From an archaeon (GTDB lineage: Archaea; B1Sed10-29; JAJSAI01), in the NCBI GenBank assembly GCA_024274695.1, contig JAJSAI010000023.1:1-41980 (forward strand): a stretch of 41,980 nt of DNA, read 5' to 3'. Within the stretch, counting starts at the first letter, position 1. Each line of letters begins with the position of its first letter. A model generated the notes under the pieces. It had not been told where the DNA came from and made no database searches. It saw only the letters and a list, made by a program, of their open reading frames with translations. The position numbers and the translations under genes were made by a program. This document shows positions 725 to 3,770 of the stretch, piece by piece.

Positions 725-746
725 TAAAAAAGAAACATTTATAAAT
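725..746 (+). promoter_or_regulatory. Putative BRE/TATA promoter for the Lys/Thr-rich gene
   Basis: A purine run (aaaaaagaaac) is followed by TTTATAAA at 738-745, about 50 nt upstream of the ATG at 791. GGAG RBS at 784-787. Confidence 0.55.
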
Positions 747-790
747 AATTCCATATTTTTAAAACCATAGAAAAGATTTTGAAGGAGATA

Positions 791-1090
791 ATGATGGCCG
801 TCAAAAAAACGACCAAAAGGACTGCGAAAAGAAAGTGCGCCAAGAAGACAGTGAAGAAGAAGACAACCAAAAAGAAGACCACAACCAAAAAAACAACCAC
901 CAAGAAAAAAACAACCAAAAAGAAAACAACAACAAAGAAAAAGACAGTGAAGAAGACAGCAAAGAAAGCCACCAAAAAGAAAACAACCACGAAGAAGAAG
1001 ACAACCAAAAAGAAGACCACAACCAAAAAAACAACCACCAAGAAAAAAACAACCAAAAAGAAAACAACAACAAAGAAAAAGAAGAAGTAA
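791..1090 (+). CDS. Highly basic Lys/Thr low-complexity protein (histone H1-tail-like, candidate nucleic-acid condensing protein)
   Basis: MMAVKKTTKRTAKRKCAKKTVKKKTTKKK...KKKKK. Hand count: 50 K and 36 T in 99 aa, with no acidic or aromatic residue. It has an RBS (GAAGGAG), an upstream TATA box and a T-run after the stop. Mixed AAA/AAG and ACA/ACC codons support coding. Confidence 0.8.
   Translation: MMAVKKTTKRTAKRKCAKKTVKKKTTKKKTTTKKTTTKKKTTKKKTTTKKKTVKKTAKKATKKKTTTKKKTTKKKTTTKKTTTKKKTTKKKTTTKKKKK
853..1082 (+). repeat. Exact 92-bp direct repeat (853-944 and 991-1082) inside the Lys/Thr gene
   Basis: Base-by-base identical copies, offset 138 nt (46 codons), in frame. Confidence 0.9.
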
Positions 1091-1094
1091 ATCC

Positions 1095-1176
1095 TTTTTT
1101 CAAACGCAGTCCGGCTGACGTGTTTGCTCCTGTCCGGAGGACAGGAAGGAGTCAAAACCCCGCCATTCTCTTTTTT
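1095..1176. terminator. Intergenic hairpin and T-tracts between convergent genes
   Basis: TCCTGTCC (1128-1135), GGA loop, GGACAGGA (1139-1146) form a perfect 8-bp stem. T6 runs at 1095-1100 and 1171-1176. Confidence 0.45.
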
Positions 1177-2431
1177 AAATTATTTTTCCAGGGAAAACCC
1201 ATCCCGGACCAAAGTAGTGGTCTCTTTGCTCAGGGTCTCCTGCGAGGGAAATATTCTTCATGACATTGAAGAAGTTGCCTACGAGGACACAGTTTCGGAC
1301 AGGCCTCACTGGAACGCCTTCTTCCAGTACCGCTCCAGAGGAAACCTCCAGGCTGAAATCACCCGTCAGGTGATTGCACGTGTGGACTCCTAAAACATCG
1401 CGCACCATCACTCCAGAAACTTCTTCCATCTTCATCTGTTCTTTGGATGAGAACACGAGGTTTGTGGGGTGCTCGTGAACGCCGCCCGCGCTACGGTGCG
1501 CGTGGCCGGTGGGGTTCTCGCCTGAAAGCCAGCAGGACGTCAGGTCGCGCACAAGGTTTTTCAGTACACCGTCTTCTATTACAGGCAGTACTCTGGATTT
1601 TACTCCCTCGTGGTCGTAATCTCTGGAGTACAGTCCCTTCTCAAGCTTAGGCTCGTCAATCACGCGCAGGTGTTCTGCCGCGACCTCCTTTCCTATCATG
1701 CCCCTGAAGATGGACTTCTTTTGTATGACCCTGTACTGGCTCAAAGCAGGCGACAGGAACGCTTCCACCAGCTCTGAGACAGTTTCAGGGGGGATGAAGA
1801 CAGTTGTTTCTCCTGAAAATCTTTTGCCCCCGCACGTGCTGGACGCGAGCCAGGCTATCCTGTCACTCAGTTCGTCTAGACTGAATTTTTCCATGCGCGT
1901 TTTCCCTTCCCACGTTTCAGTACCCTTGTAGGATATGTTGGCGTACGCGGAGTAAAAGGCCTCCTTCCATTCTATCCTTGTCCCGGAGGAGGACACTAGC
2001 AGGGACTCCTCAAGGTGCTTTGAAACACCGCACTGGGTCGGGCTCACTCCTTTTTCGGTTATGCTGCTCGTTAGGACGGCGAGCTCCTCAGCCATGTCCA
2101 GAGGGTCAGCGTGCAGGATGCTTTCGTGTGTCCTCCTCTCCCTGTTTCTTACTGGGTCCGGGAAGAAGATTCCGCCGTACTCTCTTGAATATTTTACAGT
2201 TTTCAGAACCGTTTCCACCACCTTCTCAGGGGATATGTTCCCCCAGAAGGAGCACATTCCAATTTTTTTCCCGCGGGCTACCCTAACCTGGCAGTATTCG
2301 TCAGACTCATCGCGCGCGAACTCAAGACTTCTGCCGACGGATTTCACTTCTGTACCCGATGACTTGCGCACGAACACTTCCGCGTAGTCTGCTTTCTCCG
2401 CGAGTCTCATGACCAGCTCTTCAGGATCCAC
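1175..2431 (-). CDS. pmbA: TldE/PmbA family protein
   Basis: 418 aa directly downstream of tldD. Motifs YDHEGVKS..IEDGVLKN, TGHA and GVHTCNHLTGDFSL. Lacks the HExxxH motif, as expected for the non-catalytic partner. Confidence 0.88.
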   Translation of the reverse strand: MDPEELVMRLAEKADYAEVFVRKSSGTEVKSVGRSLEFARDESDEYCQVRVARGKKIGMCSFWGNISPEKVVETVLKTVKYSREYGGIFFPDPVRNRERRTHESILHADPLDMAEELAVLTSSITEKGVSPTQCGVSKHLEESLLVSSSGTRIEWKEAFYSAYANISYKGTETWEGKTRMEKFSLDELSDRIAWLASSTCGGKRFSGETTVFIPPETVSELVEAFLSPALSQYRVIQKKSIFRGMIGKEVAAEHLRVIDEPKLEKGLYSRDYDHEGVKSRVLPVIEDGVLKNLVRDLTSCWLSGENPTGHAHRSAGGVHEHPTNLVFSSKEQMKMEEVSGVMVRDVLGVHTCNHLTGDFSLEVSSGAVLEEGVPVRPVRNCVLVGNFFNVMKNISLAGDPEQRDHYFGPGWVFPGKII

Positions 2432-3770
2432 CTATTCTCACCTTCCTAACAAGGAGGTAGGGCCCTCCGCTGGACACCCTCACGCTCTGACCTCCCTTCC
2501 CGCAGAAGCCGGGGCTGAGCTCGCCGAGTTTTCTGCCCGCGCATTCTACAGAGTGCAGGGTGTCCAGTATGCTTCCCGAGAACATCACGTTCCGGTAGAC
2601 TGTCTTCTTTTCTCCTTTTTCTATCAGGTAAGCCTTGACCGCGGCGAACTGGAATTCCCCGTTCAGCGTGGACACCTGCCCTCCGTTATCCCCTTCCAGT
2701 AACAGGCCCCTGCCGAGTTCTGACATCATCTCTTCTTCTTTCCAGTCTCCTGGAGCGAAGAATGTGTTGCTCATCCTGACCAGGGGTATTTGCCCGACCT
2801 CTTCTGCTCTCGCGTTACCCGTGGAGTGTGTTTTCATCCTGCCCGCGCTCTCTCTTGAGTGCAGGAAGGAAGACAGGATCCCGCGGTCTATTAGCACAGT
2901 CTTACGCGCGGGGACACCCTCGTGGTCCGCGTGGTATGACCCGTACTCTCCAGGCAGGGTTGGGTCGTCCACTATCGTAACCTGTTGTGAGCCTATTCTT
3001 TCTCCAAGCCGGCCCTTCAGTATGGACTCTCCTGCGAGCACTGCGTCCGCCTCGCACGCGTGCCCTATCGCTTCATGCGCCAAAAGCCCTGCTAATTCTG
3101 GGCCCATTATCACATCGTATTTTCCTGACTTCACCAGCCGTGCTTTCAGGAGTTCTAGAGCCTCTTTTTTGGCTTCTTCCGCTCTTGTGATGTCAAAAAT
3201 CTCCATTCCCGCAAGCCTGCCTATCCTTTTGCATGACTCTTGCACGCCTTTTCCGTTCTTCGCCACCGCGCAGAACATCACGAATGTTTCAGGGTACGAC
3301 TCCCAGAATTCTGTGCCTGTGTTGTCCAGGTACCCTGTTTTCACGTCAGAGTATATCATGGTCGCGGTAGTGTTCACTATCCCTTCCCCGGACATGACCT
3401 CGCACGCGTGCTTCAGCATGTCAACTGCCTCGTCAAGATCAAACTCTTTTTCTGGCTTGACCTCTGTCCTCCCGGAAGCTGTTTTCTCGTCGGATAAATC
3501 GTTAGACAGCCCTTTCACACTGCAGACTTCTGCCATACGCGCTGCTTTTTCCACAAGACCGTCCGGGCTCGGGGAGGATGCTATCCCCATGCCATTTCTA
3601 CCGATCACTCTCACAGAGTAGTCTGTGGAAAGGGTGTTCGTGAGCCTTTCAACTTTCCCGTTCCTCACGGTAATCCTGAGGGTCCTGGATGAAGAAGTTC
3701 TTCCTATGACCAGCTTTCCGGTGCTGGCGGAGAACACTGATTCCGCGAAGTCAGCCGCCAAGATGATCAC
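2421..3770 (-). CDS. tldD: TldD family metalloprotease
   Basis: HEAIGHACEAD zinc motif, DHEGVPA, STGNARA, RMSNT and C-terminal CGKGGQSVRVSSGGP. GTGA overlap with the upstream gene. Confidence 0.92.
   Translation of the reverse strand: MIILAADFAESVFSASTGKLVIGRTSSSRTLRITVRNGKVERLTNTLSTDYSVRVIGRNGMGIASSPSPDGLVEKAARMAEVCSVKGLSNDLSDEKTASGRTEVKPEKEFDLDEAVDMLKHACEVMSGEGIVNTTATMIYSDVKTGYLDNTGTEFWESYPETFVMFCAVAKNGKGVQESCKRIGRLAGMEIFDITRAEEAKKEALELLKARLVKSGKYDVIMGPELAGLLAHEAIGHACEADAVLAGESILKGRLGERIGSQQVTIVDDPTLPGEYGSYHADHEGVPARKTVLIDRGILSSFLHSRESAGRMKTHSTGNARAEEVGQIPLVRMSNTFFAPGDWKEEEMMSELGRGLLLEGDNGGQVSTLNGEFQFAAVKAYLIEKGEKKTVYRNVMFSGSILDTLHSVECAGRKLGELSPGFCGKGGQSVRVSSGGPYLLVRKVRIGGS

Follow-up and report, generated by a model that had tools for sequence, protein, structure and literature searches.

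A candidate stand-alone lysine/threonine polycation encoded beside PmbA in a Micrarchaeota genome

The chlamydial proteins Hc1 and Hc2 condense the nucleoid, and the repeats of Hc2 are rich in Lys, Ala, and Arg. The stretch of archaeal DNA analyzed here, referred to as the window (41,980 nt; positions 1 to 41,980 of the forward strand of contig JAJSAI010000023.1, assembly GCA_024274695.1), comes from an 825-kb genome in 32 contigs that is 91% complete, and it carries at positions 791 to 1090 an open reading frame (ORF) rich in Lys and Thr, referred to as the K/T ORF, which the initial annotation proposed to encode an H1-like chromatin condenser. We put at roughly 0.55 the probability that its product is a translated, disordered polycation which binds DNA nonspecifically and neutralizes or compacts it, resembling an H1 tail or Hc2 in action while belonging to neither family. 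Among related systems, the Lys-rich KPAA repeats of Pseudomonas AlgP are described as binding DNA, and its C-terminal domain (CTD) as a rearrangement hot spot (PMC9239181). The TopA-DNA complex was found by experiment to be stabilized by lysine repeats, which give processivity (PMC5714199), and DNA-binding proteins are reported to be enriched in Lys-rich low-complexity regions (PMC6821194). Surveys of archaeal chromatin, as described in PMC7613761, count folded families, namely, histones, Alba, MC1, Cren7, Sul7, HU, and TrmBL2, and some lineages thereby score few or zero known nucleoid proteins.

The features of the locus are as follows.

731-746 (+): promoter, with a purine-rich agaaaca resembling a transcription factor B recognition element (BRE), then the TATA box TTTATAAAT, about 45 to 60 nt upstream of the start codon
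784-787 (+): Shine-Dalgarno (SD)-like GGAG, 3 nt before the ATG at 791 and 6 nt before the ATG at 794
791-1090 (+): K/T polycation ORF, 99 codons plus TAA, or 98 amino acids (aa) if the start is 794
853-944 (+): copy 1 of a 92-nt exact in-frame duplication (offset, 138 nt or 46 codons)
991-1082 (+): copy 2 of the duplication, identical to 853-944
1095-1100 (+): T6 tract, resembling an archaeal terminator, five bases past the TAA stop of the K/T ORF
1128-1146: hairpin with an 8-bp stem and a 3-nt loop (CCTGTCC-GGA-GGACAGG plus one pair), between the convergent K/T ORF and PmbA
1175-3770 (-): PmbA/TldD peptidase pair adjoining the K/T ORF (relatives at loci L005, L008, L012, and L014)

Translation of the K/T ORF (MMAVKKTTKRTAKRKCAKKTVKKK...KKKKK, then the stop) reproduced the composition given in the initial annotation (99 aa with K50, T36, R2, and C1, no acidic or aromatic residues, and a charge of about +52) and added A5, V3, and M2 as the remainder. 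Asp, Glu, Phe, Trp, Tyr, and His are all absent, and there is no Leu, Ile, or Pro. The product has a computed net charge of +52, a mass of 11.4 kDa, and a pI of 11.8. Its Lys residues occur in runs of 1 to 3, with a single run of 5 at the C terminus, and its Thr residues in runs of 1 to 3; all repeat spacings within the ORF are multiples of 3. The TATA box, ribosome binding site, and T tract assigned to the gene were likewise found, at 731-746, 784-787, and 1095-1100, respectively. Archaeal transcription terminates at oligo-T tracts. The ATG at 794 is better spaced from GGAG than the one at 791 and yields MAVKK..., matching the orthologue in a genome of the same order (G002); therefore, the true start may be 794, giving 98 aa. 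The hairpin was present in both the minimum free energy and the centroid structures, and the whole region compared with shuffled sequences gave a z score of -1.45, which is not significant.

That the protein has no folded domain was borne out by a search of Pfam, in which nothing scored above threshold, and by an AlphaFold2 model with a predicted template modeling score of 0.15, in which DSSP found zero secondary structure. Comparison with known systems showed some clear likenesses and differences. First, like Hc2 and Hc1, the K/T protein is small, extremely Lys rich, built of repeats, of low complexity, and without a classical fold, and HC2 (PF07382), the only Pfam family to appear at an E value of ≤10, was its best match. 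The HC2 score was 11.7 bits (E = 0.27) against a gathering threshold of 40; thus, the protein is not a member. It differs from Hc2 in using Thr in place of Ala/Pro (T36, A5, P0), in being archaeal, and in having its own syntenic family beside PmbA. Second, like the CTD of H1 and the KPAA repeats of AlgP and PhaF, it is a disordered, Lys-rich polycation of variable repeat number for which nonspecific DNA binding is predicted. Compared to the Lys/Ala/Pro-rich H1 CTD, it is also Lys rich and disordered, but Thr serves as its spacer, and Ala (A5) and Pro (P0) are scarce or absent. It has no winged-helix or helical N-terminal domain and is all tail: the globular winged-helix domain of linker histone H1/H5 (PF00538) gave no match in Pfam at an E value of ≤10, and the Burkholderia-type H1-like family NF038053 (hist_H1_lk_Burk) of NCBIfam scored 8 bits (E = 3.1) against a cut-off of 80, again short of membership. 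Third, the lysine-repeat tail of Streptomyces and other actinobacterial TopA is a tract of the same kind. The difference is that the TopA tail is an appendage tethering an enzyme, whereas the K/T tract stands alone and would therefore act only through charge neutralization, bridging, or competition. Fourth, the closest natural counterpart is the tail of MC1 in the same organism, which shares the K/T/A composition and the repeat style but is about 50 aa long and attached to a folded DNA-bending domain (PF05854). The MC1 domain itself gave no match in the K/T protein, whereas the true MC1 of this genome scores 97.4 bits; homology to the MC1 tail was not established at the sequence level, both being of low complexity. 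The tail is possibly the evolutionary source or sink of the K/T repeats. Finally, at 11.4 kDa and a pI of 11.8, the protein is small and basic as nonspecific nucleoid-associated proteins are.

Of the proposed H1-like condenser, a DNA-binding role similar to that of an H1 tail is the part best supported, by the tails of MC1 and topoisomerases, whereas assignment to the H1, Hc2, or Burkholderia families fails at their cut-offs. The description as protamine-like did not hold, since protamines are Arg-dominated polycations and the K/T protein has R2 versus K50. Dimerization through the single Cys is unlikely, as a Cys is present in only two of the five syntenic orthologues, and a phosphorylation switch on Thr found no support: the kinase-like matches in the genome are weak and none is linked to the K/T gene, and the same is true of the SIR2-like matches.

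The plus strand of the K/T ORF contains only 7 T per 297 coding bases, and because it is nearly without T, four of its six frames are open. Frame openness alone therefore carries no evidence of a gene here, and the case for a gene is a comparative one, made from synteny and signals. Relatives were searched for in 40 related genomes (designated G with a number, the source genome being G000), with a phylum set of 31 genomes and an order set of 18, and the neighboring genes were identified by Pfam. A search of the 18 order genomes located PmbA in 6, with identities of 25 to 53%. In five of these six, spanning three families, a K/T ORF lies tail to tail with PmbA, a TldD/PmbA peptidase, and the orthologues are 77 to 100 aa long.

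G000 (window): K/T ORF beside PmbA, 99 aa
G001 (same genus): K/T ORF beside PmbA, interrupted by a 100-N gap
G002 (same order): K/T ORF beside PmbA, 100 aa, MAVKKTTRGKKK...KRKC...
G009 (same order): K/T ORF beside PmbA, 91 aa
G005 (same order): K/T ORF beside PmbA, 77 aa

We defined this syntenic set by an M-[AV]-[VT]-KK(K)-T start, a content of at least 80% K+T+R, and convergence with PmbA, all of which fit the five ORFs above. In the sixth PmbA-bearing genome, G013, LonB directly follows PmbA and the K/T ORF is absent. The neighbor on the opposite side varies among the syntenic loci, being a Na/Ca exchanger, LonB, or a methyltransferase; for instance, in family f2, the K/T ORF is flanked by PmbA on one side and LonB on the other. 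A connection with proteases acting on unfolded chains is conceivable. TldD/PmbA acts on unfolded peptides, and the placement of the ORF beside it, and in one family also beside LonB, might point to regulated turnover. A second context was found in G027 and G019, where the K/T ORF lies between Kae1/TsaD and a methyltransferase and carries a nonrepeat N-terminal part of 45 to 60 aa. In all, at least 10 of the 31 phylum genomes encode a pure K/T protein on an ORF of its own (G000, G001, G002, G005, G009, G021, G022, G024, G028, and G030).

The boundaries of these ORFs were compared in a set of nine (the window, G002, G009, G005, G021, G024, G028, G035, and G022). All nine have a (g)aaa-TTTWTAAAT box 45 to 60 nt upstream, an SD-like motif (similar to GGAG, GGAGGT, or GAGGTG), T tracts past the stop, and an ATG at the edge of the tract; in G035, this ATG is codon 4 of an ORF that begins with GTG. 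A pattern coding for KKTTKKKT matched four times in the source genome, always within the K/T ORF, and 39 times across the phylum, in 13 of the 31 genomes, compared to 0 and 1 match, respectively, for the reversed control; the tract is not a chance product. The syntenic homologues that the initial annotation called for were thus present, as stand-alone orthologues beside PmbA in four other genomes, and with its own signals the ORF is a unit by itself rather than the tail of another gene. Together, these comparisons indicate that 791-1090 is a real, independently transcribed mini-gene, with expression itself predicted.

Across the phylum, 27 of the 31 genomes match the Pfam histone fold model; neither the source genome nor its genus-mate G001, which is 95% complete, gave a match. 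When the 70-aa histone of G009 was used as a query, the G002 homologue was found (6.5e-26), and none was found in G000, G001, G005, or G007 at an E value of ≤1. A search for HU found none. With Alba and MC1 both present and neither histone nor HU detected, the chromatin of this genus seems to depend on Alba, on tailed MC1, and possibly on the K/T polycation. Within the order, all five genomes with a syntenic K/T ORF have MC1, and G013 is without both; these genomes are kin, and no statistics apply. In the six genomes of family f4, there are one to four histone fold matches each, and MC1 and the K/T pattern were not found. Outside the order, the K/T ORF occurs without MC1. The link between the K/T ORF and MC1 or histone content is a loose one.

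Since the K/T protein has no fold, its function was argued from the proteins to which such sequences are attached elsewhere. A scan of all ORFs of the source genome for basic windows found tracts of the K/T type on only three other proteins.

G000:C20:21672-22082, equal to L150:1351-1761 (-): MC1 (PF05854, 6e-28, residues 2 to 87) with a K/T/A C-terminal tail of about 50 aa
L002:1498-1974, equal to G000:C14:5253-5729 (-): small membrane-like protein with a hydrophobic N-terminal part and a long K/T/R/S-rich tail
G000:C13:4882-5475 (-): small membrane-like protein with a hydrophobic N-terminal part and a long K/T/R/S-rich tail

Searches for MC1 in the 31 phylum genomes located it in 10, none of which lies outside this order (L145 to L154). 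Every one of the 10 genes encodes a polycationic tail of about 10 to 60 aa; the tails of this genus are K/T rich, that of G003 is of the R/A/S type, and others are of the K/A/V type. According to Table 1 of PMC7613761, canonical MC1 is 93 aa long. No description of tailed MC1 in Micrarchaeota was found in the literature searched. Public genomes were then scanned for KKKTTKKKT, which gave at least 120 stretches; 80 loci were examined, comprising 54 larger ORFs and 26 others. Among the matches listed, 25 of the 54 larger ORFs encode DNA-handling proteins, and the 54 are distributed as follows.

Type IA topoisomerase: 22
Topo VI A: 1
HU: 1
MC1: 1
Ribosomal protein S2: 2
Trigger factor: 2
HATPase: 1
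Other enzymes or surface proteins: 9
ORFs of no family: 15

Among the matches listed, 17 of the 26 other loci were read as stand-alone polycation mini-ORFs of 21 to 158 aa, of which the six shorter than 36 aa are doubtful genes. Among the taxa in which these listed mini-ORFs occur are, in archaea, Micrarchaeota, Woesearchaeota, Pacearchaeota, Nanobdellati, and Thermoplasmata and, in bacteria, Saccharibacteria, Dependentiae, Omnitrophota, Cloacimonadota, Planctomycetota, and Polyangia. The earlier suggestion that the protein serves a very small cell is too narrow, given similar mini-ORFs in Planctomycetota, Polyangia, and others.

Three further ORFs with related tracts were observed in the relatives. 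L165:1414-2904 (G021:C34) is by eye TFB-like, with a zinc ribbon and cyclin-like repeats, and has a K/S/T-rich N-terminal extension of about 200 aa. L015:1357-1971 (G011:C6) encodes 204 aa, of which the N-terminal two-thirds is K/T/A rich and the C-terminal part is a zinc ribbon, and it adjoins ScpA/ScpB, which are condensin partners. L009:115-1728 (G008:C21) is by eye topoisomerase-like; it contains motifs resembling those of inteins, and its C-terminal tail is rich in K/A/T.

The DNA-binding reading is supported by what was observed of the ORF, its composition, its signals, its synteny, the lack of a predicted fold, and the fusion of like sequences to DNA-binding proteins. From these, we infer that the protein is translated and abundant and that it binds and compacts DNA. 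The product would be an 11-kDa intrinsically disordered chain with about one positive charge per two residues. Its binding to the phosphate backbone of DNA would most likely be nonspecific and of high avidity, and some binding to RNA would be inevitable. Because the protein is all tail, it would act by charge neutralization and bridging; once bound, it would neutralize charge and bridge or compact the nucleoid, and each molecule could neutralize about 26 bp. It may be seen as a free-standing version of the polycationic tail already present on the MC1 of this lineage, and it would share its task with MC1 and Alba in a genus for which neither histone nor HU was detected. Its repeat number would shift quickly through in-frame slippage or duplication.

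Several observations weigh against this reading. First, a polycation cannot discriminate DNA from rRNA, and 29 of the 54 larger KKKTTKKKT ORFs among the matches listed are not DNA-binding proteins; K/T/R tails are also borne by the two small membrane proteins of this genome. Second, G002 and G009 carry both histones and the K/T gene, for which reason a strict rule of histone replacement was rejected. Third, each of the nine K/T ORFs of the comparison set has two open antisense frames, because AAR, ACN, AGR, GCN, and GTN codons cannot give antisense stops there. Moreover, codon structure makes the K/T frame and the antisense F/V frame share their wobble position. Therefore, periodicity cannot decide the strand, and the strand call rests on boundaries, signals, context, and fusions; frame analysis by itself does not exclude the antisense ORFs 739-1155 and 801-1103. 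Fourth, the Thr codons of the K/T ORF are skewed to ACA/ACC compared to the genome (P = 0.001), a comparison in which the duplication makes the codons nonindependent. Fifth, none of eight exact ATG-start K/T ORF sequences was present in a collection of 15 billion proteins; either gene callers miss these ORFs or they choose another start. Finally, the internal repeat copy number is possibly misassembled. The G001 orthologue is broken by the 100-N gap, and with such breaks in the K/T repeats, the copy numbers are uncertain.

The alternative that survives best is that the protein is translated but has RNA or the ribosome as its main partner, as a polycationic RNA chaperone or a ribosome-associated counter-ion. 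rRNA is the most abundant cellular polyanion, and among the 54 larger ORFs listed, the tracts on ribosomal protein S2 (two) and trigger factor (two) point in this direction, as does one on uS3 in G011. Ribosomal proteins are also reported to bear Lys-rich low-complexity regions commonly (PMC6821194). However, DNA-handling partners outnumber ribosome-associated ones by 25 to 4 among these listed ORFs, MC1 is the only folded nucleic-acid-binding protein with such a tail in this genome, and the K/T ORF is not syntenic with ribosomal genes. We therefore consider a primary role on RNA unlikely.

A second alternative is that the tract is noncoding, for example, a fast-evolving A-rich spacer such as the terminator region of the convergent PmbA, and that the ORF is a by-product of composition. 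Several of the observations above fit such a spacer, namely, the T-poor DNA that leaves several frames open and the absence of all eight exact sequences from the protein collection. Homology searches fit it as well: phmmer found no relatives at an E value of ≤1e-3 among 8,000 candidates, although composition correction defeats the query and makes this result uninformative on relatives, and recognition in the ESM Atlas was low. The Atlas, taken as a lead only, returned compositional look-alikes in bacterial clusters of "hypothetical proteins," one with HC2 on 17% of its members. A search of public contigs gave 599 pattern matches, none of which was confirmed by tblastn, low complexity again defeating the query. 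The antisense strand of the K/T ORF contains 12 runs of at least 5 T. Directly downstream of PmbA, such runs would suit a terminator; archaeal RNA polymerase is expected not to read through them, which argues against the antisense F/V ORF located there.

Against a noncoding tract, each of the nine tracts opens with a start codon and closes with a stop codon of the K/T frame, with BRE/TATA and SD elements before it, and the repeat units are always multiples of 3. The same type of ORF occurs in unrelated contexts without PmbA, and the same type of sequence occurs in frame with MC1, topoisomerases, and TFB. The PmbA of G013 has no tract, which means that PmbA does not need one, and an Rfam search of the region matched no RNA family. 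In the nine ORFs, the other two sense frames are interrupted by stops throughout, except for the +2 frame of the window, and comparison of the K/T ORF with 402 long genomic ORFs showed the same Lys codon use (P = 0.71). On balance, a noncoding tract appears quite unlikely, and a translated K/T ORF is preferred.

Overlapping ORFs were considered and rejected. The ORF at 835-1263 (+) in the +2 frame (142 aa, rich in N/E/K/Q, with a weak CAF1A_acidic match) was set aside because this frame has stops in the eight other K/T ORFs, and those at 739-1155 (-) (an F/V/L polymer) and 801-1103 (-) (an S/W/L polymer) were set aside because they are forced by composition and contain many T runs. These three ORFs, of 100 to 142 aa, are by-products of T-poor DNA that could mislead gene callers. 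Runs of about 100 N were also seen to interrupt the K/T ORFs of relatives at L020:1048-1434 (G001) and L170:1459-1863 (G011:C5) and also at L097. Assembly breaks at K/T repeats may help explain why such genes are underannotated.

It is also improbable, and more so than a noncoding tract, that the polycation is aimed at another target, such as polyanions of the membrane or envelope or a host cell. DPANN archaea live attached to hosts, and in addition to the two small membrane proteins of this genome, membrane proteins of Woesearchaeota (L084 and L089) and of Micrarchaeota G026 (L163) carry such tails. However, the K/T protein, in which F, L, I, W, and Y are all absent, shows neither a signal peptide nor a hydrophobic segment, and its gene has no synteny with genes for secretion or pili. 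On membrane proteins, such tails would also fit a role in holding DNA or RNA at the membrane, and the two small proteins of this genome may tether nucleic acid in this way. A role in organizing polyphosphate granules, as described for AlgP, whose Lys-rich disordered CTD localizes to such granules and spaces them (PMC9239181), is highly improbable here, since neither PPK1 (PF02503) nor PPK2 (PF03976) was found in the 91%-complete genome by searches whose controls matched.

What sets the DNA-binding K/T polycation proposed here apart from the known kind is that it is archaeal, has Thr in place of Ala/Pro, contains no folded part, belongs to a PmbA-linked family, and coexists with a tailed MC1 where no histone is detectable. 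Full-text searches of the literature outside most subscription journals found no account of free-standing Lys/Thr polycations in archaea, whether DPANN or not. More tentatively, and with more doubt than belief, overlooked stand-alone Lys/Thr polycations could be a major chromatin component of this histone-less Micrarchaeota lineage, serving as "free tails" together with tailed MC1 and Alba, and the same solution could have arisen repeatedly in archaeal and bacterial lineages with small genomes, namely, DPANN, CPR, Dependentiae, and Omnitrophota.

If K/T mini-proteins are made, then an entire class of proteins that coat nucleic acids has gone unseen: gene callers appear to skip them, low complexity defeats homology searches, and trypsin would destroy them. 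Surveys would miss such polycations because they rely on folded domains and tryptic proteomics, and if the polycations are indeed a major chromatin component, they would be a prokaryotic counterpart of packaging by protamines and H1 tails. The lineage would also offer a simple, testable system for how DNA is packed in a genome of 0.8 to 0.9 Mb without a detectable histone, and it bears on whether a polycationic tail and a free polycation can stand in for each other as modules.

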